Shown: piece after piece, positions 346 to 12,158 of the stretch
Layout: each line of letters starts with the position of its first letter
How positions within the stretch are numbered: the first letter of the stretch is position 1
Origin: an uncultured Acidobacteriota bacterium
Lineage (GTDB): Bacteria; Acidobacteriota; Thermoanaerobaculia; Multivoradales; UBA5704
Assembly (NCBI GenBank): GCA_963770895.1
Contig: CAVYRF010000002.1
Location: 3,040,001-3,104,000 of the forward strand
Direction of reading: 5' to 3'
Length of the DNA: 64,000 nucleotides
Made by a program: the position numbers and the translations under genes
Notes under the pieces: generated by a model
Seen by the model: the letters and a program-made list of their open reading frames with translations, nothing else
What the model was told of the DNA's origin: nothing
Databases searched by the model: none

Positions 346-498
346 GCCATTAACGTTACCGGAAGTATTCTAGCAGCAATGGCGGCGCCGGTCCAGGGGC
401 GCCGCAGTGCTGCGGTGCTGCCGGCGCCGCCGTCGTTCTGCAACGGATACGTGGCGCCGCGGATTCCCGATGAGTCGCGCCGGGGAGCCGGCGGGCGC

Positions 499-1809
499 CT
501 ACGGCTCCACTGCGTTGGGCGGCCGGCCGGCGGCGAGGTTGAGGTTGAGGCCCAGGGTGTTGATCGAGCGTGCCAGGCCCGGCAGGTTGGAGGTAAAGCG
601 CGTGCTCGAACCGACCAGGCTGACCACGGCGCCGCGCGCCACGTCGAAGGACAGCGCGCCGCCGAACGACACCAGGTCGTCGTGCCGCTCCGGCGTGCCG
701 GTGGCGCCGGCGATTTGGGTATAGCCCAGGCTGCCGGTCTCACCGAAGCCGCTGACCTTGGCGCGGGCGCCCAGCTTGACGTGCAGCGCCACGCCGTGGC
801 GCAGGTCGTCGAAGTAGGAATAGTCGGGCAGCAGCGAATAGACCAGGTTGCGGTTGGCGTAGACGAAGACTTCGGTCGCCGGAGTGATCTCGTAGGAGAC
901 CGTGATGTGGCCGGTGGTCTTGTCGTAATGGGCGAACGACGACCCCTGCGTCGCCGACAGCGACCGCTGGGCCAGGTCGACCTCGAAGAACAGGCGCCCG
1001 TGCTCGCGCGACAGCTCCAGCACCGGCGCCGTGCCGGAGTTGGAGCGGTTGGGGACGCCGGGCAGGTGGTCGTCAAAGGTGACGTCGGAATGCTCGGCGC
1101 CGGCGCCCACCAGCCAGCCGGGGGCCGGCCGCCAGCGCAGCCCGGCGCGCTCGACGCGCTCCTCGTGGTTGAGCTCGTCGAGCTCTACGGCGGTGGGGTC
1201 GTCGGCGCTGGCGAGGTTGGTCTGGCGGGTGATCTCGCCGCTGACGAAGGGCGACAGGGTGGACGTCGCCGCCACCTCGACGGTGGCCGCGACGTGGTCG
1301 ATGCGGGCGCTGGTCAGGGTGGGCAGCTCGGCGGTGAGGATCTGCTGCTGCGTGTCGCTGCCGGCCGTGAGCCGCAGCGTCAGGCGGTTGAAAAAGCCGT
1401 CGAAGCCGGCGCCGTACAGGCCGTCGAAGCGCCGCCGGTCGCTCTCTTTCTGCCACCAGACGTACTCGGGCAGAGCGTAGGCGGTCCACATCGCCTTGCT
1501 GCCGGCGGGCAGGTAGAAGCGCGCGCCGCCGGCGACGGTGGCGGTGAAGTCGGTGGGGTTCGCGTCGCCCGCCGAGCCCAGCAGGTTCTTGACGTAATCG
1601 ACGTCCTTGAGCTCGAACGCCGGCGCGATCTTGAGCGCGCCCAGGCTGAAGCGGGCGCTCTGGGCTTCCTTTTCCAGCTCGCCCTTGCGATCGATCGGGC
1701 GCCCCTCGGGGCCGCCGGGGGTCGTATACTCGGTGAATTGAGCCCAGGCGGAGCTGGCGACGAACAGCGACAGGAGGGTTGCACTGCAAGACCGGGTGAG
1801 CCGCCGCAT
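499..1809 (-). CDS. Outer-membrane beta-barrel protein associated with polysaccharide export
   Basis: Signal peptide (MRRLTRS...SSAWAQ), alternating amphipathic beta-strand pattern, position directly upstream of the Wza-like gene. Confidence 0.65.
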   Translation of the reverse strand: MRRLTRSCSATLLSLFVASSAWAQFTEYTTPGGPEGRPIDRKGELEKEAQSARFSLGALKIAPAFELKDVDYVKNLLGSAGDANPTDFTATVAGGARFYLPAGSKAMWTAYALPEYVWWQKESDRRRFDGLYGAGFDGFFNRLTLRLTAGSDTQQQILTAELPTLTSARIDHVAATVEVAATSTLSPFVSGEITRQTNLASADDPTAVELDELNHEERVERAGLRWRPAPGWLVGAGAEHSDVTFDDHLPGVPNRSNSGTAPVLELSREHGRLFFEVDLAQRSLSATQGSSFAHYDKTTGHITVSYEITPATEVFVYANRNLVYSLLPDYSYFDDLRHGVALHVKLGARAKVSGFGETGSLGYTQIAGATGTPERHDDLVSFGGALSFDVARGAVVSLVGSSTRFTSNLPGLARSINTLGLNLNLAAGRPPNAVEP

Positions 1810-1865
1810 AGTCTCTCCGTGCAGCAGAGCGTTGGATTGATGCCGGACCAAGGGAAAGCGGCGCC

Positions 1866-3413
1866 ATGATACGCCATTCCGGCGCGGCTTTGACCGCCCT
1901 GCTGGTCGCCCTGGTGATCTGGGCGCCGCTGCCCTTTGGCGGCGTCACCACCTGGGCCGAGGCGAGCCTGCAGACGCTGGCCTTCCTGGCCCTCGCCCTG
2001 GCGATGGTGGTGGTCGAGCGCGCCTCCGATCTGCGCCCGGTGGCGCTGCCGGCGCTGGCGCTGGGCGGCGTGGCGCTCGTCGGGGTGCTGCAGGCGCTGC
2101 CCTGGCCGGCGGCGCTGGTCGGGGTGCTGTCGCCGGGTGCGGCGCGGCTCTACGGGCAGGCGGGGGCGCTGGCCGGCGCCGCCGCGGCGACCCACTTCAG
2201 CCTGGCGCCCGCCGCCACCTGGGCCGCGGCGCTCAGCTGGGCCGCGACCGCCGCCTGCCTGCTGGCCGGCGCTGCCGCGGGGCGCCGGCGCTATCGACGG
2301 CGTTGGGTGGGCGGAGCGTTGCTGGTCAGCGCCGTGGCCCAGATCTTCGTCGGCGCGCGCGCCGCCAACGCCGGCGACCGCACGCTGTGGGGAGTCGAGG
2401 TGCCGATCATAACCAGCCGGCTGCACGGCACCTTCTTCAACTCCAATCACCTGGCGCTCTACCTGGAGATGGCGCTGGCGGTGTGCTTCGCCTGGGGCTG
2501 GTGGGCGGTGCGCAGCTCGCGTGGGGACGGCGCCCTGGAAAAGCGCATCCTGGCGCTGGCGCCGCCGGCGCTGGTGTGGTTGACGCTCTTTGCCGGGCTG
2601 TCGTTCACCGCCTCGCGCGGCGGCCTGCTGGCGGCCTTGGCCGGCATCCTGGTCCAGGGCGCGCTGCTGGCCACGCTGCGGCGGCGGTGGGCGCCGGCGG
2701 CCCTGGGCGCGGCGGTGGCCGGTGTGGGGATCGCCACGGTGCTCGCCCTGGGATTGCAGTCCGGACCGGCGCGGATGCTGGCGACGCTGCCTTTCGACGT
2801 CAGCCTGGGGGCGCGGCGTCAGGCATGGGCGGCGACGTTCGCGCTGTGGCGGCGCTTTCCGCTGGCCGGCACCGGGCTGGGCACCTTTCGCGACGCCTTC
2901 ACGCTGACGCAGCCGGCGGACCTGGACGGCACCTGGTGGCATGCGCACAGCGGGCCGCTGGAGCTGCTGGCGACCGCGGGTCCGGTGGGGCCTCTGCTGA
3001 TCGCCGCCGGCCTGGTGGCGCTGGTGATGCGCCTGCTGGTCGTGCTGCGGCGCGGGCGGCGCTCCGAAGACCGGGCGGCGGGCCTGGCGGCGCTGGGTGC
3101 GCTGGCCATGGCGGTGGCGCACGAAGGGCTCGATTTTGGGCTGACGATGCCCGCCAATGCGCTCACCCTGGCGGTGCTGGCCGGTGCCGCCGCGACCGCC
3201 CGGCTGGCCGCGCCCGAGCCGTCGCCGTCACTCGGTGGCGGTGGCGGTGCCCGTGCCGCTGCCGGCGCCCGAGCCGGCGGCCAGCCGCACGCGGCCGGGA
3301 CGCACCGCGCCGCCGGCGACGCTTTCGATCTCCAGCAGGTGCAGCCCCGGCCCCAGGGCGGCAGGCAGGGTAAGGGTGGCGCCCGGAGCCACCGGGAAAG
3401 CGCCGACCACTGA
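1866..3413 (+). CDS. O-antigen ligase/Wzy_C family membrane protein (copy 1)
   Basis: Many TM segments; motifs PLPFGG, RLHGTFFNSNH, TASRGG, PLAGTGLGTF, HAHS..LELLA. Confidence 0.85.
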   Translation: MIRHSGAALTALLVALVIWAPLPFGGVTTWAEASLQTLAFLALALAMVVVERASDLRPVALPALALGGVALVGVLQALPWPAALVGVLSPGAARLYGQAGALAGAAAATHFSLAPAATWAAALSWAATAACLLAGAAAGRRRYRRRWVGGALLVSAVAQIFVGARAANAGDRTLWGVEVPIITSRLHGTFFNSNHLALYLEMALAVCFAWGWWAVRSSRGDGALEKRILALAPPALVWLTLFAGLSFTASRGGLLAALAGILVQGALLATLRRRWAPAALGAAVAGVGIATVLALGLQSGPARMLATLPFDVSLGARRQAWAATFALWRRFPLAGTGLGTFRDAFTLTQPADLDGTWWHAHSGPLELLATAGPVGPLLIAAGLVALVMRLLVVLRRGRRSEDRAAGLAALGALAMAVAHEGLDFGLTMPANALTLAVLAGAAATARLAAPEPSPSLGGGGGARAAAGARAGGQPHAAGTHRAAGDAFDLQQVQPRPQGGRQGKGGARSHRESADH

Positions 3414-4994
3414 GTCGTCCAGGCGCACCTCGACGGCGGCGCCCAGCAGCGGCGCGGCGTCGACCGCGATGATGAACGCCGGCGCCTCGCCGGCGGCCAG
3501 CAGCTCCAGGCGGGAGGTCGCGCCCTGCACGTCCCAGGCGGCGGCGGGCCACTCGCGGGCCGCCAGGCGCGTCAGGGCCTGCGCCGCCGCCGTCTCGCCC
3601 GCGGCGTCGCCGGCGGCGTGGGCGATCGCCGCCTTGACCTGCCAGGTGTTGGGGCGGTCCAGCCAGCTGTGCGGCAGCTCGACCAGCGCATCCTGGGCGT
3701 CGGCCGCGGCGTGGCCCTTGGCCAGCAGCATCTTGGCCTTCAGCAGCCGGTAGGGCGCCCACTCCTCGCTCCAGGCCGTGGCGTAGGTGCGCTCCAGCAC
3801 CTCGGCGCGCGGCAGATCGCCGGTGACCACCGCCGCCATGGCGTCCAGGCGGGGATCCAGGTCGCGGCAGAAACCGGCCAGGCGGGCGAGCGGCCGCTGC
3901 GGCAGGGGGCACTCGAAGAGGCGGCAGCGGTCCAGGTTCCAGGCCAGCTGCCGGGCCAGGCGCTCCGCCGTGCGGTGGTCGACCGAGCCGGGCGGGCAGC
4001 TTTCCAGCGCGCGGGTGAGCAGCGAAAGGTAGCTGCGGCCGGGCCGCGCTTCGGCGGCGATGGCCAGGAAGCGCTCGCGCGCGTCGGGCGCCCCCGGCCG
4101 CTCCGCCGTCGCGGCCAGGCGGTACGCCAGGCTTTCGCGCAGGACCTGGTTCCAGCGATCGCGGGCGGCGCAATAGCCCGTCCAATCGGCGTGCTGGGAG
4201 TAGAACTGCTGCACCGTGTCCCACGCTTCCGGGTCGTGGGGGATGACCGCAAAGGCTTCGGCGCGGCTCGCCGCCGTGGTCAGCCAGGGCGCCAGCAGGC
4301 CGGCGAGCACCTGCGGATCGGCAAAGACGCTGGTCAGCAGCTGCTTTTCGCGCTCGCGCTTGGCGGCCGAGAGCTGCGGCCACAGCTCCAGGTAGGCGGC
4401 GGCCAGCAGGCGGGCGGCGTCGGTGCGCCCGGGGGCCAGCGCCATCGCCGCTTCCAGGGGCCGCTCCCAGGTCGGCGCCTGGGTGAACAGCCGCGTGTCG
4501 TGCGCCTGCGACCACGAGAGATAGGTCGCGGCGCCCAGCACCATCGCCGCCTCCCAGGCCGCCGGGCGCGCCGTCAGGCCGGCCCCCGCCAGCCCCGCCG
4601 TCTCCGCCAGGCGCGACGCCGCGGTGCCCTGCCGGCCGTCGTCGCCGGCGGCCGGCAGGTCGGCGCGACGGGTGGGATCGAGCTCGGCGGCGAGCGCGGC
4701 GCGCGCCGCCCGCAGGTCGACGCGGCCCGGATCGGGCTCGTACTCCAGCTCGCGCGGCACCGTGGCGCCGCCGGCCACCAGCCACGCCGCCATCTGTTCC
4801 TGGCGTGCCGCCAGCGCGTGCTGCTGCGCCATCGCCACCGCCGCCAGCGCCAGCCCCGCCAGCGCGCCGCCGGCACGCCACGCCAGCCCGCCGCGATGCA
4901 GCCACGCCCCTGGCGTGCCGGCCTGCCCGGAGCCGCCGCCGCGATCGCCGGCGGGCTCCGAGCCGGGCACCGAACCCGGCCGTTGCATGTTCAT
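3228..4994 (-). CDS. Membrane-anchored helical (TPR-like) hypothetical protein with a C-terminal beta domain
   Basis: Long ORF with an N-terminal hydrophobic segment and coding-like composition. Extended -10 (TGGTATCAT) lies 6 nt before ATG 4994. Confidence 0.55.
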   Translation of the reverse strand: MNMQRPGSVPGSEPAGDRGGGSGQAGTPGAWLHRGGLAWRAGGALAGLALAAVAMAQQHALAARQEQMAAWLVAGGATVPRELEYEPDPGRVDLRAARAALAAELDPTRRADLPAAGDDGRQGTAASRLAETAGLAGAGLTARPAAWEAAMVLGAATYLSWSQAHDTRLFTQAPTWERPLEAAMALAPGRTDAARLLAAAYLELWPQLSAAKREREKQLLTSVFADPQVLAGLLAPWLTTAASRAEAFAVIPHDPEAWDTVQQFYSQHADWTGYCAARDRWNQVLRESLAYRLAATAERPGAPDARERFLAIAAEARPGRSYLSLLTRALESCPPGSVDHRTAERLARQLAWNLDRCRLFECPLPQRPLARLAGFCRDLDPRLDAMAAVVTGDLPRAEVLERTYATAWSEEWAPYRLLKAKMLLAKGHAAADAQDALVELPHSWLDRPNTWQVKAAIAHAAGDAAGETAAAQALTRLAAREWPAAAWDVQGATSRLELLAAGEAPAFIIAVDAAPLLGAAVEVRLDDSVVGAFPVAPGATLTLPAALGPGLHLLEIESVAGGAVRPGRVRLAAGSGAGSGTGTATATE

Positions 4995-5116
4995 GGCCCG
5001 ATGATACCAAGGCCCTCTACGAGGCGCGCCGCCGGCGGCGTCAGGCACCCCCGATCGACCTGGCGCAGAGGCGGGGCTGCGGGGGGAGCCGTCGCCGCTG
5101 ATCTATGCTCATGGCG

Positions 5117-6451
5117 ATGTCCGGCCGCGGAGTGCGCTTCGATCCTCCCGCGCTGCCGCTGACGCCGGCGGTGCGCTGGATGCTGCTGCGCGCCTTCGGG
5201 CCGCCGGGCGCCGCCCTGGGTGCGGTGGGAGCGGTTGGGGCAGCGGGCGCGGCAGGTGCAGCGGGTGGGGCGGCGCCGCCGGCGGTGGCGCCCGCGGCGG
5301 CGCTGGCGCTCAGCCGGCGCTTCGACCTTGCGGCGCGCATCGCGGCGCGCCAGGGGCGGGCGCGGCTGGCGGCGGAGCTGGGCGAAACCGCGGTGGTGGA
5401 AGGCTTCGTGCACGACCGCGCGGCGGCGGCCGCGGCAACGCTGCGCGCCATGGCGCTGGTCGAGCAGGTGGCGGCGGCGGCGGCGGCGCGGCAGATTCCG
5501 GTGGTGTTCCTCAAGCTGGCGGCCCTGGAGCTGCTGGGCGTGCTGGCGCCGGGCAGCCGGGCGGGTTGCGACCTGGACGTGCTGGCGCCGGCGGAGCGGG
5601 CCGGCGAGCTGCTGCAGGCGCTGGTCGAGCGCGGCTTTCGCGCCTCGCCGCTGCCCGAGCAGGAGCACCAGCTGGCCGCCCTGGAGGGGCCGGACGGAGT
5701 TGTCGAGGTGCACCGGATGCTGCTCGGCGTGCGCCTCGATGGCCGGCCCGACCAGCCTGACCAGCGCCCCGGGCAAACCCGGCAACCCCGGCGACGCGCG
5801 CGATCAGCGCGGTGGGCCGACTTGCAGCGAGCGGGCCTGCTGACCGCGCTGCCGCGGCTGCCGGGCGCCGCGGCGGTGCCGGTGCCGGCGGTGGCCGCGG
5901 CGCATGCGCTGGTGCACGGCATCGCCCAGCACGGCTGGGCGCCGGGCTCGTATTCGCTGCTCAGGATGGTCGGCGACCTGATCGACCTGGGCTTTGCCGA
6001 GTCCCGTCCGCTCGCCGCGAGCGTCGCCGCATGGGTCGCCGGCGACGTGACGCCGGTGGAGGTGGAGGCGGCGCGGCGCTTGGCGGCGGAGCTGGCGGCG
6101 GGTGCGTGGGAGGATTCGCGGGCGCCCGAGGCGGTGCTGCTGCGGCACGCCCTGGCCGGCCGTCTGGACCCGGAATACCAGCGCTCGCTGCGCCTGGCGC
6201 TGTTCCGCCGGCAGCCGAGCGACCTGCCGCAGGCGCTGCGGCTGGCGCGGGCGGTCGCCGGCACCGTGTGGCTCAGCCGCGCGCGGGTGGACGCGATCTA
6301 CGGGCCGCCGCGCCACCGCCTGGGCTACCTGGGCCGCCGGCTGCTGCGACCGCTCGACCTGCTGGCCCGGCTCGCCAGCTCCGCCCGCCAGGCCTGGCGC
6401 GTCCGCCGCCGCCCGGCCGGGAACGCGGGCGGCGGCGGCACGGCGCCGTAG
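5117..6451 (+). CDS. Nucleotidyltransferase family protein (NTP_transf_5-like)
   Basis: Motifs IPVVFLK.AAL, R..CDLDVL, VEVH..L, HALVH...H. Start may be 5105, 5111 or 5117. Confidence 0.75.
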   Translation: MSGRGVRFDPPALPLTPAVRWMLLRAFGPPGAALGAVGAVGAAGAAGAAGGAAPPAVAPAAALALSRRFDLAARIAARQGRARLAAELGETAVVEGFVHDRAAAAAATLRAMALVEQVAAAAAARQIPVVFLKLAALELLGVLAPGSRAGCDLDVLAPAERAGELLQALVERGFRASPLPEQEHQLAALEGPDGVVEVHRMLLGVRLDGRPDQPDQRPGQTRQPRRRARSARWADLQRAGLLTALPRLPGAAAVPVPAVAAAHALVHGIAQHGWAPGSYSLLRMVGDLIDLGFAESRPLAASVAAWVAGDVTPVEVEAARRLAAELAAGAWEDSRAPEAVLLRHALAGRLDPEYQRSLRLALFRRQPSDLPQALRLARAVAGTVWLSRARVDAIYGPPRHRLGYLGRRLLRPLDLLARLASSARQAWRVRRRPAGNAGGGGTAP

Positions 6452-6471
6452 CGGTCAGGCCGCTGGTCTGT

Positions 6472-6621
6472 CTAGTTGGTGCACACCGTGGGGCAATAGG
6501 TTTCGAAGTAGGTGACGCACTCGCTGCGCGGGCCGGTCATGGCGGCGACCCGGGGGAGCTGGCCGTGGCTGAGCTGCTGCAGGGTTTCGCGGCTCAGCTT
6601 CATCGACTTTTTGGTCTTCAT
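6472..6621 (-). CDS. Candidate RiPP precursor, lanthipeptide-like (49 aa)
   Basis: MKTKKSMKLSRETLQQLSHGQLPRVAAMTGPRSECVTYFETYCPTVCTN; AGGAG RBS 8 nt upstream; KL.RETL leader and a Cys/Thr-rich core. Confidence 0.7.
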   Translation of the reverse strand: MKTKKSMKLSRETLQQLSHGQLPRVAAMTGPRSECVTYFETYCPTVCTN

Positions 6622-6769
6622 CAACGTTTCTCCTGGGGCTGCGAAGCGTTCGAGCGGACGCGCCCGAGCGCGCGCGGCGCTCCTACTTCGCAGGGTGCCT
6701 GGCGGCGGGTGAAGCGGTCCCCGCCGGGCTCGCCGCCGCCGGCGCAGGCGGACATATACTCCTCCCGCC

Positions 6770-8275
6770 GTGAGCAAGCCCCGATCCAACCGCGGCCGGC
6801 GCCCCCCCGCCGCCGCCGGTCCCGCCGCCTCGGCGTCGAGGCGCCGCCAGACGGTGGCCGGCGCCGTCGCCGCGATGCCCGCGGTGCCCTGGAAGGCGCT
6901 GGCGCCGACCGGAAAGGCGGCGGTGGCGCTGCTCTGGCTGCTGGTGCTGGTGCCCGCCTGGTGGTATTCGCCGGCGGCCAAGGATGCGTTCCGGTTGCCC
7001 AAGCTGATGCTGGCCGAGTGGCTGGGCCTTGCGTCGCTTTTGCCGCTGGCCTGGCAGCTGTCGCGCGTGCCGCGGATCGGGTGGCGCGACCTGTGGCGAT
7101 GGCCGGCGGTGCGCGCCGTGGTGCCGCTCCTGGCGATCGCGACCCTGGGGCTGGCGACCAGCGCCCACGCCCTGCACGTGCGGCAGGGGCTGATCGACCT
7201 TTGGATCGGCGCGGCGTGCCTGGTGGGGTGGAGCGTGGCGCTGCCGGCCGGCCGGCTGGGACGCCTGCTCGGCCTGCTGCTGGTGCCCGCGATCGCCCTG
7301 GCCGTGCTGGGCATCCTGCAGTTCCACGGCGTGCTGCACGCGCCGGTCGGCGGCATGCACGGGACGGCGCCGCGCTTCAGCGTGATCTCGCGGGCAGGCA
7401 ATCCTGGCGACCTGGGCGCTTTCCTGGTGCTCCCCTGCCTGGTCGCGCAGTGGCTGCTGGCGCGGGCGCCGCGGCGGCGGGGGTGGCTGCTGGCGGCGCT
7501 GGCGATCTGTGCCTACGGCGTGGCGATCACCCAGACGGTCGCCGCGCTGTCGGCGCTGCTGGTCGGCAGCCTGGTGCTGTGGGGCGCCGCCCTGGGACGC
7601 GGCGTCGCCGCCGGCCAGCGCGCCAGGATCGCCGGGGCCGTGGTGGCGCTCGGCCTGGTCGCCGCCCTGGCCGCCGCCGCGGTGCCGGCGCTGCGCCAGC
7701 GCGTGGCGGACAAGCTGGCCGCGGCGCGGCACGGAGACTGGAACGACGTGCTGACCGGGCGGGTGGACGGTTGGCGGGCGGCCCTGTGGATGCTCGGCCA
7801 GCACCCCTGGAGCGGGGTCGGCCAGGGCGCTTTCCGCGCCGAGTTCGCGCCCGCCAAGCTGGCCCTGCTGGACCGCGGCGCCAGGCCGTTCTACTCGGGC
7901 CAGCAGCAGAGCTTCGTCAACGCCCACGACGAGGCGCTGGAGGTTGGCGCCGACCTGGGCTGGCCGGGCCTGGTCGCGCTCGCCTGGGCGCTCTGGGTCC
8001 TGGCGGCGGCGGTGCGTGCCGGCGATGCCCGCGATGCCAGCAATGGGGGCGATGGCGGTGTCGAGCGGTCCGACCCCACGGCTGGCCAGGCGCCCGGCGA
8101 GCGGGCGGCGCGGGCGGATGCCGCCCTGGCCATGGCGGGGACGGCGGCGCTCGGCGTGCTGGCGCTGGTCGACTTCCCGTTCCGCATCGCGCTGGTGGCG
8201 TTCCCGGCCCTGCTGCTCCTCGCCTGGGTGCTGGCGCGGGCCGGCGCCGCCGTCGCGGCGGAGGGTGGCGCGTGA
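6770..8275 (+). CDS. O-antigen ligase/Wzy_C family membrane protein (copy 2)
   Basis: Polytopic membrane protein; F.LPK, GNP..LG, R...W..AL.M...HPWSGVG.G.F, NAHDE.LE motifs. Confidence 0.85.
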   Translation: MSKPRSNRGRRPPAAAGPAASASRRRQTVAGAVAAMPAVPWKALAPTGKAAVALLWLLVLVPAWWYSPAAKDAFRLPKLMLAEWLGLASLLPLAWQLSRVPRIGWRDLWRWPAVRAVVPLLAIATLGLATSAHALHVRQGLIDLWIGAACLVGWSVALPAGRLGRLLGLLLVPAIALAVLGILQFHGVLHAPVGGMHGTAPRFSVISRAGNPGDLGAFLVLPCLVAQWLLARAPRRRGWLLAALAICAYGVAITQTVAALSALLVGSLVLWGAALGRGVAAGQRARIAGAVVALGLVAALAAAAVPALRQRVADKLAAARHGDWNDVLTGRVDGWRAALWMLGQHPWSGVGQGAFRAEFAPAKLALLDRGARPFYSGQQQSFVNAHDEALEVGADLGWPGLVALAWALWVLAAAVRAGDARDASNGGDGGVERSDPTAGQAPGERAARADAALAMAGTAALGVLALVDFPFRIALVAFPALLLLAWVLARAGAAVAAEGGA

Positions 8276-8724
8276 AGGGGCGGCCGCTGGCGGTGGCGTT
8301 GATCGTCGTGCTGGCGGTGGCGCTCGGCGCCCAGAGCGTGCGCTGGCGCGACCGGCTGCTGGCCAGCGAGCTGGTCAACGAGGTGGAGGTGATCTCGGTC
8401 AGCGCCGCCACCCGCGGCTCGGCGACGCTCGAGCGGGTGCTGCCCGGCGTGCTGGCGGCGTTGCGGCGCGCCGGCGACGCCGATCCGCTGGACGTGGAGG
8501 TGCCGCTGGCGCGCGGCTCGCTGTACTACCTGCTGCGGCGTCCCGACGAGGCGATCGCCAGCTACCAGAGCGCCGCGGAGCTGGAACCGCACGCCGAGAT
8601 CCTGCTGCACCTGGGCGACGCCCTGCTCGCCGCCGGGCGCCAGGACGAAGCCCGCCGCAGCTATCGCGACGCGCTTCGCCTGGCCCCCTGGCTGTGGCCG
8701 CTGGTGCCTGCCGGGGAGCGGTAG
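8272..8724 (+). CDS. Membrane-anchored tetratricopeptide repeat protein (150 aa)
   Basis: GTG overlaps the ligase stop (GTGA); N-terminal TM segment; TPR motifs (LARGSLYYLLRRPDEAIASYQSA; LHLGDALLAAGRQDEARRSYRDALRLAP). Confidence 0.8.
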   Translation: MKGRPLAVALIVVLAVALGAQSVRWRDRLLASELVNEVEVISVSAATRGSATLERVLPGVLAALRRAGDADPLDVEVPLARGSLYYLLRRPDEAIASYQSAAELEPHAEILLHLGDALLAAGRQDEARRSYRDALRLAPWLWPLVPAGER

Positions 8725-8758
8725 CGTCCCGCTCGCCGCCCCCCGGCAAGCGACCTGG

Positions 8759-8947
8759 CTACCAGGGCGACGGCTCAGGGTCCGACAGGTGCCATGGCAC
8801 CGGGGGCGGATTGGAGGTCTTCCAGGGCGAGGGTTCGGGATTGAGCCGGATCGGCCCGATCGGCAGCCACGGCGACGGCTGAGGGCCGCTGCCGCGGACG
8901 GCGCGCAGCGCCTGGCCGGGCGCTGTCGAACGGTGAATCTTCTTCAT
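8759..8947 (-). CDS. Small repetitive peptide with four P-x-P-x-P-W motifs (62 aa), candidate multi-core RiPP precursor
   Basis: MKKIHRSTAPGQALRAVRGSGPQPSPWLPIGPIRLNPEPSPWKTSNPPPVPWHLSDPEPSPW; strong AAAAGGAG RBS before ATG 8947. Confidence 0.65.
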   Translation of the reverse strand: MKKIHRSTAPGQALRAVRGSGPQPSPWLPIGPIRLNPEPSPWKTSNPPPVPWHLSDPEPSPW

Positions 8948-9087
8948 TGCGTCTCCTTTTCCTGAAGTACGGCACACAAGATAGAAGCATGTGCATTTGA
9001 GCGCGCAATGCGTGACCGCGCTCCCGCGAGACGTCCCCCCTGCTTCTGGTAGCATGGCGGCGGCAGCCATGCCTGCCTGGCCGGGCC

Positions 9088-9525
9088 ATGACCCCTTCCT
9101 CCAACCAAACCGCCGCGGATGACCCCGGCACGCGCGTCGCGGCGGCGTTGCGCGACATGGCGCGCCAGCAGCCGATCGTGCTGGCCGTCAGCGGCGACTG
9201 CATGGCGCCGGTGCTGCGCCACGGCGACCGCGTGCAGGTGGCGCCGGCGCGCCGCTACTGGCCGGGCGACATCGTGGCGCTGCCGACGGCGCAGGGGCGG
9301 GTGGCGGTGCACCGGTTGCTCGGCTACCGGCTGGCCGCGGGGCGCTGGCTGTGCGTGACGCGCGGCGACCTGTGCGCCAGCCCCGACGCGCCGCTGCCGG
9401 CGCGGCTGCTGCTGGGGCGGGCCAGCGTGCGCCCGTCGCTCGCCGCGCGGGTCCGGGCCGTCGCGGCGTTCGCCGCTCTCGCGTTTGCCGCCGCCCGGCG
9501 CCGGGCGGCGGGTCGCCCGGCGTGA
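9088..9525 (+). CDS. S24/S26 peptidase-like protein
   Basis: V.GDCM.P.L..GD.V, GDIV, VHRL, TRGD motifs. Confidence 0.75.
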   Translation: MTPSSNQTAADDPGTRVAAALRDMARQQPIVLAVSGDCMAPVLRHGDRVQVAPARRYWPGDIVALPTAQGRVAVHRLLGYRLAAGRWLCVTRGDLCASPDAPLPARLLLGRASVRPSLAARVRAVAAFAALAFAAARRRAAGRPA

Positions 9526-10445
9526 GCTTCGGCGCCAAATACCTGCGGCGTCCCGATCGCTTCCCGCACGTCGAGGACAGCGAGCCGTGGGGCGAATGCC
9601 AGGTGGCGCTCGACCTGCCGGGCGGTCCCTACCACTTCACCGGTCTTTCGGCGGCGCAGCTGGATGGCGTGCGGGCGGCGTTCCCCGGCGCCGTCGCGGC
9701 GGGTGCTGCCGCCGGCGCGACGGCCCCCTGCCGGCTGCTGCGTGCCGCCGCCGGCGACTTCCTGCCGGTCGACACGCGCGGCTGGGAGTACGCCATGGAT
9801 GCCGACTGGCAGCCCCAGGCGGTGCGGTTCGCGGGGCTGGGGCTGCTGGCGCGGCTGGATTGGAAGCCGGGCTTGACGGGCGGCGCGCTGTGGACCTGCG
9901 AGGACGGCGGCGCGCGCTTTCCGGGCGTGTTCGAAAACTTCCTGCGCATCCTGGTCGCCTACCGCCTGGTGGAGATCGGCGGTGTCGTGCTGCACAGCGC
10001 GGGGGTGGTCAAGAACGGCGCGGCGTTCCTGTTTCTGGGGCGCTCCGGCGCCGGCAAGACCACCATTTCGCGGCTCAGCCTGGCGCGCGGCGGCGAGGTG
10101 CTGAGCGACGACCTCAACGCCCTGTTCCCCGCCCCCGGCGGCTGCGAGGTGCGCCAGCTGCCCTTCACCGGCGACCTGGGGGAGCGCGGCGCGGTGCGGC
10201 GGGCGGTGCCCCTGGGCGCGCTGGTGCGGCTCGAGCAGGACACCCTGGACGCGGTGTCGCCGCTGCCGCGGGCGCGCGCGCTGGCCTGCCTGCTGGCCTG
10301 CTCGCCGTTCGTCAACGTCGATCCCTACCGGCGCGATCGCCTGGAGGGAGCCCTGCTCGCCCTGCTCGCCGCCGCCCGCCGCCCGGCGCTCGCGCTGCGC
10401 TTCTCGTTGGGCGGTGGCTTCTGGTCTATAATCGACGCAAAATGA
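9522..10445 (+). CDS. HPr kinase-related P-loop protein
   Basis: GTG overlaps the previous stop; LHSAGV...FLGRSGAGKTT...LSDD is the HprK-like signature. Confidence 0.8.
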   Translation: MSFGAKYLRRPDRFPHVEDSEPWGECQVALDLPGGPYHFTGLSAAQLDGVRAAFPGAVAAGAAAGATAPCRLLRAAAGDFLPVDTRGWEYAMDADWQPQAVRFAGLGLLARLDWKPGLTGGALWTCEDGGARFPGVFENFLRILVAYRLVEIGGVVLHSAGVVKNGAAFLFLGRSGAGKTTISRLSLARGGEVLSDDLNALFPAPGGCEVRQLPFTGDLGERGAVRRAVPLGALVRLEQDTLDAVSPLPRARALACLLACSPFVNVDPYRRDRLEGALLALLAAARRPALALRFSLGGGFWSIIDAK

Positions 10446-10819
10446 AGCAGATCGAAGGTTTAGGCTTGCAACCCGACAGCGTTCTCCAGCGCTCGGGCGA
10501 TGTGCGCTTTCGCGTCGTCGACGACGAAGGGGTGGTGGTGCGCCAGGCGGCGGGCGAAGTGCTGGTGCTCAACGCCATGGCAACCCGCATCCTGGCCCTT
10601 GCCGACGGCGTCGCGCCGGTCGACGCGTGGGTCCAGGCCCTGCTCGCCGAGTACGACGTGGACCGTCAGGTGCTGCAACGGGACGTGCTCGCCTTTGCCG
10701 CGGAGCTGCTGGAGGAGGGCATGCTGGAACCCGCCGCCGCCCCCGCCAGCCCGCCGCCTGCGACAATGGCGACGGCGCCCGGTGCCGGGGCAGGCCCGAC
10801 GCATAAGGACGGCGCATGA
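10442..10819 (+). CDS. PqqD family / RiPP recognition element protein
   Basis: ATG overlaps the previous stop; FRVVDDEGVVV...LN..ATRIL.L.DG...L.AEYDV....L.RDV..F...L...G.L. Confidence 0.88.
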   Translation: MKQIEGLGLQPDSVLQRSGDVRFRVVDDEGVVVRQAAGEVLVLNAMATRILALADGVAPVDAWVQALLAEYDVDRQVLQRDVLAFAAELLEEGMLEPAAAPASPPPATMATAPGAGAGPTHKDGA

Positions 10820-11949
10820 GCTTTCAAGACGTGCTGCAGCGCACCTGGACCGGCAACCACCTGTTTTCGGTTCTGGTGGAGCTGACCTATCGCTGCAACC
10901 TCGACTGCTTCTTCTGCTACAACGACCTGGCACAGCGCGGCAAGCCGCTGTCGGCGGCACAATATTGCTCATTCTTCGCCGACCTGCGCGATCTGCAGGT
11001 GCTCAACCTCACCCTCACCGGCGGTGAGCCGCTGGCGCATCCGGACTTTCTACAGCTGGGCGCCAAGGCGCGCGAGCTGGGCTTCGTGGTGCGCATCAAG
11101 TCGAACGGTCATTCGCTGCGCGGCGCCATGGCGCGCCGCATCCGCGACCAGGTCGATCCCTTTCTGATCGAAGTCAGCCTGCATGGCGCGACGGCGGCGA
11201 CGCACGACCGCCAGACGCGGGTGCCGGGGAGCTTCGATCGATTGCTGGCCAACCTGCGCGCGGCGCGGCGCCTGGGGCTGCGCCTCAAGATCAACTCCAC
11301 GATGACGGCGTGGAACGAGCACGAAGTCGAAGGCATGCTGGCGCTGGCCGACGATCTGGGGCTGCCGCTGCAAATAGATCCCGAGGTGACGCAGCGCGAC
11401 GACGGCGGCCGCGAGCCGCTGGCGATCACCGCGTCCCACGCCGGCGTGCAGCGCCTGTTCGAGCTGCTGGCGGCCAGGGCCGAGGGCGCCGCGGTCCAGG
11501 ACGCCTCCGGCGCAACGTCCCCCGCGCCCAGGCCGGCGGGCGCTCCGGTCGAGCTCATGCGCCAGGCCGACGACGGGTTGCCGACGGGCGGGGTCGACAA
11601 GCACTGCGGCGCCGGTTCCTCGGGCATCGCCGTCGATCCGTTCGGCAACGTCTACCCCTGCGTGCAGTGGCGGCGGCCGGTCGGCAATCTCCATGAGCGC
11701 TCGATCCGCGACATCTGGGCCAGCTCAGCCGGCCTGGACCAGGTGCGCGCCTTGACGGTTGCCGCCAAGCAGCGGGTCGACGAATTTGGCGAGGGGGGGG
11801 CGCTGCTGGCGTTCTGTCCGGGCAACGCCGCGGCGTTGACCGGCGATCCGCTGCAAATCTATCCGGGGGCGCTGCGCCGGATGGAGATCGCCTCCGCGGC
11901 GCAACAGGCGATCAAAGCCAGACGGGCGCTGCTGCCGATCCTGCGCTGA
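10816..11949 (+). CDS. Radical SAM protein with a SPASM/Twitch-type C-terminal domain (putative peptide maturase)
   Basis: ELTYRCNLDCFFCY (CxxxCxxC), TGGEP, CGAG...VDP.GNVYPC...GNL. Confidence 0.92.
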   Translation: MSFQDVLQRTWTGNHLFSVLVELTYRCNLDCFFCYNDLAQRGKPLSAAQYCSFFADLRDLQVLNLTLTGGEPLAHPDFLQLGAKARELGFVVRIKSNGHSLRGAMARRIRDQVDPFLIEVSLHGATAATHDRQTRVPGSFDRLLANLRAARRLGLRLKINSTMTAWNEHEVEGMLALADDLGLPLQIDPEVTQRDDGGREPLAITASHAGVQRLFELLAARAEGAAVQDASGATSPAPRPAGAPVELMRQADDGLPTGGVDKHCGAGSSGIAVDPFGNVYPCVQWRRPVGNLHERSIRDIWASSAGLDQVRALTVAAKQRVDEFGEGGALLAFCPGNAAALTGDPLQIYPGALRRMEIASAAQQAIKARRALLPILR

Positions 11950-11981: not shown

Positions 11982-12158
11982 TCAGGACGAAATAGGGCCG
12001 GTGGGGCAGTGGCCGCGGTCCGCCTTGGCCGGCGGCGACGGGCTGCAGATGGACGCCATGGCCTCCAACGGCTCGCGAAACAGGATGCGCGGCGGAGCAT
12101 AGGGACGGCGCGCGCTGGTCCCGTCGGTCTCCGCTGCCGGGTGCTGTCTGGAGATCAT
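11982..12158 (-). CDS. Candidate RiPP precursor with a YxxP RRE-binding leader (58 aa)
   Basis: MISRQHPAAETDGTSARRPYAPPRILFREPLEAMASICSPSPPAKADRGHCPTGPISS; convergent with the rSAM gene; purine-rich RBS; TATAAT on the minus strand at 12247-12252. Confidence 0.72.
   Translation of the reverse strand: MISRQHPAAETDGTSARRPYAPPRILFREPLEAMASICSPSPPAKADRGHCPTGPISS

Follow-up and report, generated by a model that had tools for sequence, protein, structure and literature searches.

Does a peptide built of four P-x-P-x-P-W heptads belong to the radical-SAM operon beside its gene, and what might it do if it does not? The gene (the PW gene) lies in a window, by which we mean the whole stretch of 64,000 nucleotides that was analysed, from the genome of an uncultured Acidobacteriota bacterium (G000). 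Divergent from it runs an operon for an S24/S26-like peptidase, an HprK-like kinase, a PqqD-family RRE and a radical SAM/SPASM (rSAM) enzyme (Table 1). The initial annotation had offered two possibilities for the product, a multi-core precursor for Trp cross-linking or a new family of signalling peptides. The intergenic region that it described between the PW gene and the operon is real and measures 140 nt. To share an intergenic region with a maturase operon says little about being its precursor as long as co-occurrence has not been examined. Our analysis takes apart the PW peptides and the rSAM operon, which had been linked by their proximity.

Table 1. Features of the PW gene, the neighbouring operon and smallC, in window coordinates.
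Feature	Position	Strand	Remarks
PW-repeat peptide gene	8759..8947	-	62 codons plus stop at 8759-8761; from translation
Shine-Dalgarno AAGGAG	8953..8958	-	spaced 5 nt from the ATG at 8947; read from the sequence
Leader, residues 1-20 (MKKIHRSTAPGQALRAVRGS)	8888..8947	-	putative double-glycine type, G19-S20 at the predicted cut; alignment A5
Heptad 1, GPQPSPW, residues 21-27	8867..8887	-	from translation
Heptad 2, NPEPSPW, residues 36-42	8822..8842	-	from translation
Heptad 3, NPPPVPW, residues 46-52	8792..8812	-	from translation; synonymous metagenome variants at 8804 and 8810
Heptad 4, DPEPSPW, residues 56-62, protein end	8762..8782	-	from translation
GC-rich inverted repeat	8706..8751		arms of 16 nt with 88% complementarity; separates the TPR gene from the PW gene, which converge
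S24/S26-like peptidase, first operon gene	9088..9525	+	PF00717, 24.6 bits; TIGR02228, 28.9 bits, below cut-off
HprK-like/ScmC-like P-loop kinase	9522..10445	+	TIGR04249, 35 bits, and TIGR04352, 20.6 bits, both below cut-off
PqqD-family RRE	10442..10819	+	PF05402, 52.9 bits
Radical SAM/SPASM enzyme	10816..11949	+	PF04055, 64.7 bits; PF13186, 34.4 bits; no NCBIfam equivalog
smallC, 58 aa, MISRQ...RRPYAPPRILFREPLEAMASICSPSPPAKADRGHCPTGPISS	11982..12158	-	convergent with the rSAM gene, 33 nt beyond its stop

The PW gene and its repeats

Translation of the gene gave a peptide of 62 residues, MKKIHRSTAPGQALRAVRGSG-PQPSPW-LPIGPIRL-NPEPSPW-KTS-NPPPVPW-HLS-DPEPSPW-stop, in which four P-x-P-x-P-W repeats follow a leader and the last one is the exact C-terminus, in full agreement with what had been reported. 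Because the DNA around the ORF is 75-78% G+C, open frames are cheap there, whereas the P.P.PW motif is not. We counted this motif in a six-frame translation of the whole 8.16-Mb genome and found 723 occurrences in 16,328,852 residues (4.4e-5 per residue); the PW ORF was the only open frame that carried four copies within 60 residues. It is preceded by a strong Shine-Dalgarno site, it overlaps no other credible gene, the TPR gene ending at 8724 and the S24-like gene starting at 9088, and its GC3 was 0.85 versus 0.86-0.92 in the neighbouring genes. Soil metagenome contigs from three runs, one of which may be the source sample of the genome, also carry it. The PW ORF is a genuine gene, and a very rare one.

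The view that the repeats are retained at the protein level was upheld. The Pro codons differ among the four heptads (CCT/CCC/CCG/CCA), TRF detected no tandem DNA array at the heptads, and homologues retain them. In a repeat search, three of the four heptad units were found as 24-nt copies that are 75-83% alike. The metagenome variants differ by two synonymous changes in heptad 3, at P48 and N46, whereas both of their changes in the leader, S7A and I4M, replace a residue.

A promoter scan found nothing, no mobile-element signature was found flanking the PW gene, and tblastn against plasmids gave no match. The GC-rich inverted repeat beyond its stop codon, which has no T run, is a possible two-way terminator. 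A role of the ORF as a cis-regulatory leader was considered and rejected, as no gene lies downstream on the same strand. AF2 predicted neither a fold nor secondary structure for the peptide when it was aligned with the 13 leader-bearing members described below (pLDDT 63.8, pTM 0.14). No Pfam or NCBIfam model matches the PW peptide, in which the initial annotation had likewise recognised no described class. In literature searches, whose coverage leaves out most subscription journals, the strings NPEPSPW and PxPxPW were not found and combined RiPP terms returned nothing relevant.

The PW family, its leader and its export

The genome has a second PW copy, P0145, a peptide of 54 aa encoded on the minus strand at C2:5,328,957-5,329,121 of G000 (L011 9958-10122). 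P0145 starts with MKKI, has a leader ending in GG, carries the heptad EPEPNPW twice and has Trp as its last residue; its Shine-Dalgarno sequence, AAAGGAGA, stands in the same place as that of the PW gene in the window. What the paralogous genes have in common is only the Shine-Dalgarno sequence, the MKK start and a short upstream TCACGCAT, the last of which may be chance. The P0145 gene is flanked by one for a Pfam-less protein (L011 8655-9803) and one for an M20 peptidase, and genes for an MFS/OEP/HlyD efflux set lie at a distance of 3-7 kb. A search of the 40 relatives did not find P0145.

Homologues were sought on a larger scale. A word-indexed search with the PW peptide returned four other proteins from 5.8 billion clusters; HMMER, run in full against 1.84 billion representatives, returned 21 at E <= 0.001, several of them unrelated low-complexity proteins; and a profile search of 5.8 billion clusters returned 30 at E <= 0.1. 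With 30 matches among 5.8 billion clusters, the PW family is therefore tiny. The homologues include P0003 (81% identity), P0004 and P0016; the heptads are retained at both 81% and 57% identity, and homologues with heptads occur in other phyla. Scans with narrow back-translated patterns confirmed one of 108 pattern stretches in genome contigs (L009) and one of 336 in metagenome contigs (L010). The family profile (A4) found nothing beyond G000 in 400 genomes sampled from its phylum and nothing beyond G433 in 400 genomes of that genome's class; 15 candidates were scored per genome in both searches, weak members possibly being missed, and the true L009 protein itself reached only E = 1.1e-4 against this profile. 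A further match, in a genome of the same genus (L008, G007:C883), was rejected as a long low-complexity open frame of PPW/PPPPW outside the PW heptad family.

The same heptads stand behind different N-termini. One group consists of 13 peptides of 47-93 aa that start with MKK and whose leader ends in L..V.GG directly before heptad 1; Trp is the very last residue in 8 of them, and 11 double-glycine-type homologues come from other organisms. Across these leader-bearing members the heptads are kept far better than the spacers, which range from 0 to 8 residues (P0148 has three heptads without any spacer) and show no conserved cleavage site. A second group of about 14 proteins, including P0005-7, P0010, P0013, P0020, P0157 and the proteins of L009 (an Actinomycetota MAG; five heptads) and L010 (a metagenome contig), has Sec or lipoprotein signals before the heptads. 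A few others (P0018, P0150, P0152-6) have heptads, an extra C-terminal domain and no export signal, so the PW motif is not exclusively extracellular. Apart from the leader of P0146 (TIGR03898), no Pfam or NCBIfam family match was found in any member. Judged from these sequences, we regard the PW-repeat peptides as a new family with a double-glycine-type leader and a novel repeat core.

The leader had been likened to a double-glycine cleavage site, and the alignment of the 13 leader-bearing members (A5) bore this out, with L14, V17 and G19-S20 standing before heptad 1. All members share M1, K2 and L14, and nearly all share K3, V17, G19 and G20; the cut column holds G-G in 10 of the 13 members and A-G in the kindred P0003. 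R18-G19-S20 directly precedes heptad 1 in the window's peptide, and a leader of 20 residues fits the 15-30 residues expected of PCAT substrates. Hydrophobic residues are found at -4 (V17) and -7 (L14), but positions -12 and -15 are A9 and R6, whereas the classic double-glycine pattern, with hydrophobic residues at -4/-7/-12/-15, is complete in P0014, P0017 and P0148. The window's peptide matches neither TIGR01847 nor any other NCBIfam model, so that no curated leader model recognises it; P0014 scored 13.0 against TIGR01847, below the cut-off of 15.7, and P0146 passed the type-2 lantibiotic leader model TIGR03898 with 34.6 bits (cut-off 23.5), its PW core being Cys-free. We take the window's leader to be a weak example of the double-glycine type.

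The genome encodes three C39+ABC exporter proteins. None is in the window, from which the nearest lies at a distance of about 76 kb, and none is near the paralogue P0145 either. As separate observations, four small ORFs of 45-51 aa on the plus strand (G000:C2:2921779, 3876774, 4747628 and 5454162) have Cys-rich cores (e.g. ...PPVCENSGNAITHCTGCC) behind leaders of the form MKK...ETL...GG or AG, and resemble further double-glycine-leader peptides. Six RHS-repeat proteins of about 1200-1600 aa (G000, L050-L055) have a weak C39-peptidase-like N-terminal region (31-34 bits).

Taken together, the leader alignment, the three exporters, the other MKK...GG peptides and the Sec and lipoprotein versions point to an exported peptide with an activity borne by its heptads. 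The reading that we prefer, with a probability of about one half, is that the PW gene encodes a lineage-specific peptide with a double-glycine leader that is exported by a C39-ABC protein, is extended in shape, has a role in competition or signalling outside the cell, and is not a substrate of the neighbouring operon. The product would be made as a pre-peptide of 62 aa, its first 20 residues or so serving as the leader, which would most likely be cut off during export by a C39 protease domain belonging to one of the three peptidase-ABC exporters. The exported part, of about 42 residues, would then be an extended, slightly acidic, Pro-rich chain of four [G/N/D]-P-x-P-x-P-W heptads with variable spacers; it holds one Arg and one Lys against two Glu and one Asp, a net charge of about -1. 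The heptads, rather than the leader, would be its conserved functional units. Because the same heptads follow Sec and lipoprotein signals, their activity should be independent of a leader-guided cytoplasmic enzyme, and the peptide would presumably carry no modification. As a reasonable guess, it would act outside the cell, in bacteriocin-like competition or in signalling.

A bolder reading treats the heptads as self-contained extracellular units of a new class of bacterial peptides, which are exported as multi-copy precursors by interchangeable signals (double-glycine, Sec or lipoprotein) and are then either freed as heptapeptide signals ending in Trp or modified by an unlinked enzyme. The copy here would have come to lie in the promoter region of a peptide-modification operon, and would perhaps be co-regulated with that operon or starting to be used by it; we think this unlikely. 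An unlinked enzyme is also at the centre of the proposal that the PW peptide is a RiPP precursor whose maturase is encoded elsewhere, with the double-glycine leader serving both recognition and export. The lanthipeptide-type leader of P0146 fits this proposal, and the way in which the heptads outlast the spacers and the proteins so often end at Trp is like that of cores shaped for an enzyme. However, no maturase was found within 10 kb of either PW copy in this genome, the adjacent operon aside, and the Sec, lipoprotein and signal-less members argue that the motif needs no leader-guided modification. The odds on this proposal seem poor to us.

Multi-copy pheromone precursors are familiar from fungi, and the PW pre-peptide could by analogy be a poly-pheromone from which proteases, after export, free four heptapeptide signals ending in Trp. 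Fixed heptads between spacers of changing length would suit such a precursor, as would the frequent end of the protein exactly after a heptad and the position of the L009 PW gene, which adjoins genes for secreted S8 and A4 peptidases. Against this, the spacers offer no conserved site for cleavage, no receptor or regulator gene is linked to the PW genes in the loci read, and the scheme is conjectural at every step, so that we rate it as quite unlikely. A plainer possibility is that the PW gene is a young orphan of little or no function, or that it encodes a small cytoplasmic protein whose leader-like N-terminus is incidental. The gene is confined to one species-level lineage among 41 genomes, its family is tiny and has no predicted structure, and some heptad-bearing proteins lack signals, all as one would expect of an orphan. 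On the other hand, P0145 repeats the architecture and the Shine-Dalgarno sequence in the same genome, homologues in other phyla retain the heptads, the changes seen within a heptad are synonymous only, and leader positions are conserved across 13 members; an orphan of this kind is distinctly improbable.

The neighbouring operon and smallC

None of the operon components reaches an NCBIfam cut-off. The kinase carries the motif H...GxSGAGKT...SDD, as read from the sequence; the solved structures nearest to the rSAM/SPASM enzyme are BlsE, PqqE and SkfB, and its best NCBIfam matches (NirJ, AhbD, ScmE, MftC and PqqE) are all far below cut-off. The gene order TPR-S24-kinase-PqqD-rSAM is retained in relatives, and the kinase as a query gave strong matches (E <= 1.5e-28) in 26 of the 40, including 9 of 9 in the genus. 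In the S24/S26-like peptidases of the window and of loci L024-L034, the motif R-G-x-[S/C]-M-A-P has Cys as its nucleophile here and in four relatives, and Ser in four others, which we read as an interchange of the two predicted nucleophiles inside one orthologous group.

Upstream of the operon, a block at 379-8724 contains g379, a Wzy_C gene, an unknown 606-aa gene on the minus strand, an NTP_transf_5 gene, a second Wzy_C gene and the TPR gene. This block and the operon are syntenic in several relatives (L024, L025, L026, L029 and L033), and an EPS-type sugar transferase gene lies downstream of the operon. With the Wzy_C/NTP_transf_5 block on one side and the EPS-type transferase on the other, the peptide system sits inside a locus that resembles those for surface polysaccharides.

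A second small gene, smallC, accompanies this operon. Its ORF of 58 codons gives MISRQHPAAETDGTSARRPYAPPRILFREPLEAMASICSPSPPAKADRGHCPTGPISS. By tblastn, smallC was present in all 12 wider operon loci from relatives (13 copies), including the rearranged loci L031 and L035, where it still accompanies the operon genes; it lies at most 250 nt from the rSAM or PqqD gene in 10 loci and 4-5 kb away in two. A smallC profile matched 26 of the 41 genomes. All 26 belong to the 27 genomes in which the kinase match was strong, and the other 14 gave no match; among the relatives only, smallC was found in 25 of the 26 with the operon and in 0 of the 14 without it. In database searches it had 1373 homologues, all of them hypothetical or nameless, the few with labelled taxa being Thermoanaerobaculia or Acidobacteriota. 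Multiple copies also occur, with two on one contig in G033 (L032) and three matches in G030.

The precursors of the smallC type are 50-60 aa long, and their consensus reads RRPYExPRILxREPLExxAxVCxPxPPAKxNxGxCPxGPISS. Y20, P23, E29, P30, E32, A35, C38 and K45 are invariant, the second Cys is nearly so, and most copies end in GPISS. The two conserved Cys residues would suit an rSAM/SPASM enzyme that forms thioethers, and the C-terminal Ser would suit an HPr-kinase-like peptide kinase. A precedent for the latter is found in PMC10368454, according to which HprK-like lasso-peptide kinases phosphorylate the C-terminal Ser of the precursor, an RRE speeds the reaction, and the clusters can also encode a nucleotidyltransferase. 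Complex prediction for PqqD (A6) with smallC (A3) scored 0.53, against 0.45, 0.41 and 0.00 for the controls, a margin that speaks neither for nor against binding. Literature searches with GPISS and smallC strings returned nothing relevant, most subscription journals lying outside their coverage. We conclude that smallC, which the initial annotation had missed, is likely the cognate precursor of the operon. Given its co-occurrence, conserved Cys residues and C-terminal Ser, no PW peptide is needed to account for the operon in full.

The PW peptide followed a different course in the same genomes. Searched as a single sequence, it was present in 0 of the 40 relatives (the best non-self match, at E = 0.0012, had internal stops); the PW family profile at E <= 0.01 also found it in 0 of 40, and no PW ORF turned up when 23 of the relatives' operon loci were scanned for the motif. 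The gap between the TPR and S24 genes is 364 nt here, with the PW gene in it, and about 0-250 nt in relatives, without a PW ORF. The PW gene therefore looks like a lineage-specific insertion, and under the export reading it would be one between the TPR and S24 genes that the relatives do not have. Elsewhere, neither an rSAM or PqqD gene nor any other maturase gene was found near the PW genes of L011, L009 and L010, and homologues that are never near modifying enzymes are what the initial annotation had expected of a repeat peptide that is not a RiPP.

These results bear on the reading of the PW peptide as a multi-core precursor in which the PqqD-rSAM operon cross-links or otherwise modifies the Trp of each heptad and the S24-like peptidase removes the leader. 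Trp cross-links are known from rSAM/SPASM enzymes of other families, those of streptide, darobactin and the triceptides among them, and the divergent arrangement over a common intergenic region, together with repeated cores and variable spacers that resemble those of multi-core precursors, speak for the reading. We consider it very improbable, as the operon occurs in 26 of 40 relatives by its strong kinase matches and the PW peptide in none; smallC goes with the operon in 26 of 27 genomes, rearranged loci included; the PW leader is unlike the conserved smallC leader Y-E-x-P-R-I-L-x-R-E-P-L-E; the three other PW loci have no rSAM gene; versions with a Sec signal cannot rely on a cytoplasmic leader-guided enzyme; and the rSAM enzyme scores below every Trp-cross-linking model (WgkB, 62 bits against a cut-off of 650).

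The PW peptide is thus probably not a substrate of the adjacent radical-SAM operon. The initial annotation was right about a real gene, protein-level repeats and a leader of the double-glycine kind, and the link that it drew to the rSAM operon was not supported; its alternative, a new family of signalling peptides, may yet prove right. The location of the PW gene in the promoter region of the operon may reflect shared regulation. Its position beside an RRE-rSAM operon, with a promoter region in common, is still a coincidence that the export reading does not explain. For its part, the operon represents a widespread unnamed system in Acidobacteriota-like bacteria, and with a likely precursor now identified in smallC, its combination of rSAM enzyme, HprK-like kinase, RRE and S24-like peptidase becomes directly testable.

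Comparison with known systems

Peptides exported by C39-ABC proteins behind a double-glycine leader comprise the class II bacteriocins, the competence and bacteriocin pheromones, and peptides with class II lanthipeptide leaders. The PW peptide is like them in its short leader, in its hydrophobic residues at -4 and -7 and in the G-G or G-S end. It differs in its core, a Cys-free, non-cationic xPxPxPW array that matches no bacteriocin or lanthipeptide family, and in that its gene has no adjacent exporter or immunity gene.

SynChlorMet and GeoRSP are bioinformatically defined rSAM/SPASM peptide-modification cassettes of NCBIfam. The operon resembles SynChlorMet (ScmC/ScmD/ScmE-F) in combining an ScmC-like kinase, a PqqD-family protein and an ScmE-like rSAM/SPASM enzyme. 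However, none of its scores comes near the curated cut-off (35 vs 125, 41 vs 100 and 94 vs 400), and the operon is therefore not a member of either. It also adds an S24/S26-like peptidase, and its apparent precursor is smallC. Literature searches for SynChlorMet and for GeoRSP/ScmC found nothing relevant within a coverage that excludes most subscription journals.

A second likeness of the operon is to the kinase/RRE/nucleotidyltransferase module of phosphorylated lasso peptides as it appears in PMC10368454. Both have an HPr-kinase-like H...G.G.GK[ST]...DD kinase beside an RRE and an NTP_transf_5 gene in the locus, and smallC ends in Ser-Ser, which may be compared with the C-terminal Ser that is the target of those kinases (PMC10368454). 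Compared with that module as described there, the operon has neither a lasso cyclase nor a B2 protease, and has an rSAM/SPASM enzyme instead (PMC10368454). This likeness is one of the operon and of smallC; the last residue of the PW peptide is Trp.

The initial idea of Trp cross-linking has its models among the rSAM RiPPs. Streptide, darobactin, the triceptides and the WGK peptides carry short Trp motifs, sometimes repeated, near an rSAM/SPASM gene, and the PW peptide shares with them Trp motifs near such a gene. Unlike them, it does not co-occur with the rSAM gene, and the enzyme next to it scores above no family cut-off. Compared with three-residue cyclophanes, the terminal Trp of the PW peptide has no +2 partner.

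Proline-rich rods and peptides are known from the EP/KP repeats of TonB and from proline-rich antimicrobial peptides. The alternating Pro residues, the extended shape and the absence of a predicted fold are points of likeness. Proline-rich antimicrobial peptides are cationic and rich in Pro and Arg, whereas the mature PW part is neither cationic (about -1) nor Pro-Arg-rich, and the strict Trp at position seven has no counterpart among the proline-rich rods and peptides. Set beside these systems, the PW family is a rare, conserved seven-residue Pro/Trp unit behind different export signals; if the heptads are signals or toxins, they would form an unusually compact and portable peptide module of soil bacteria.
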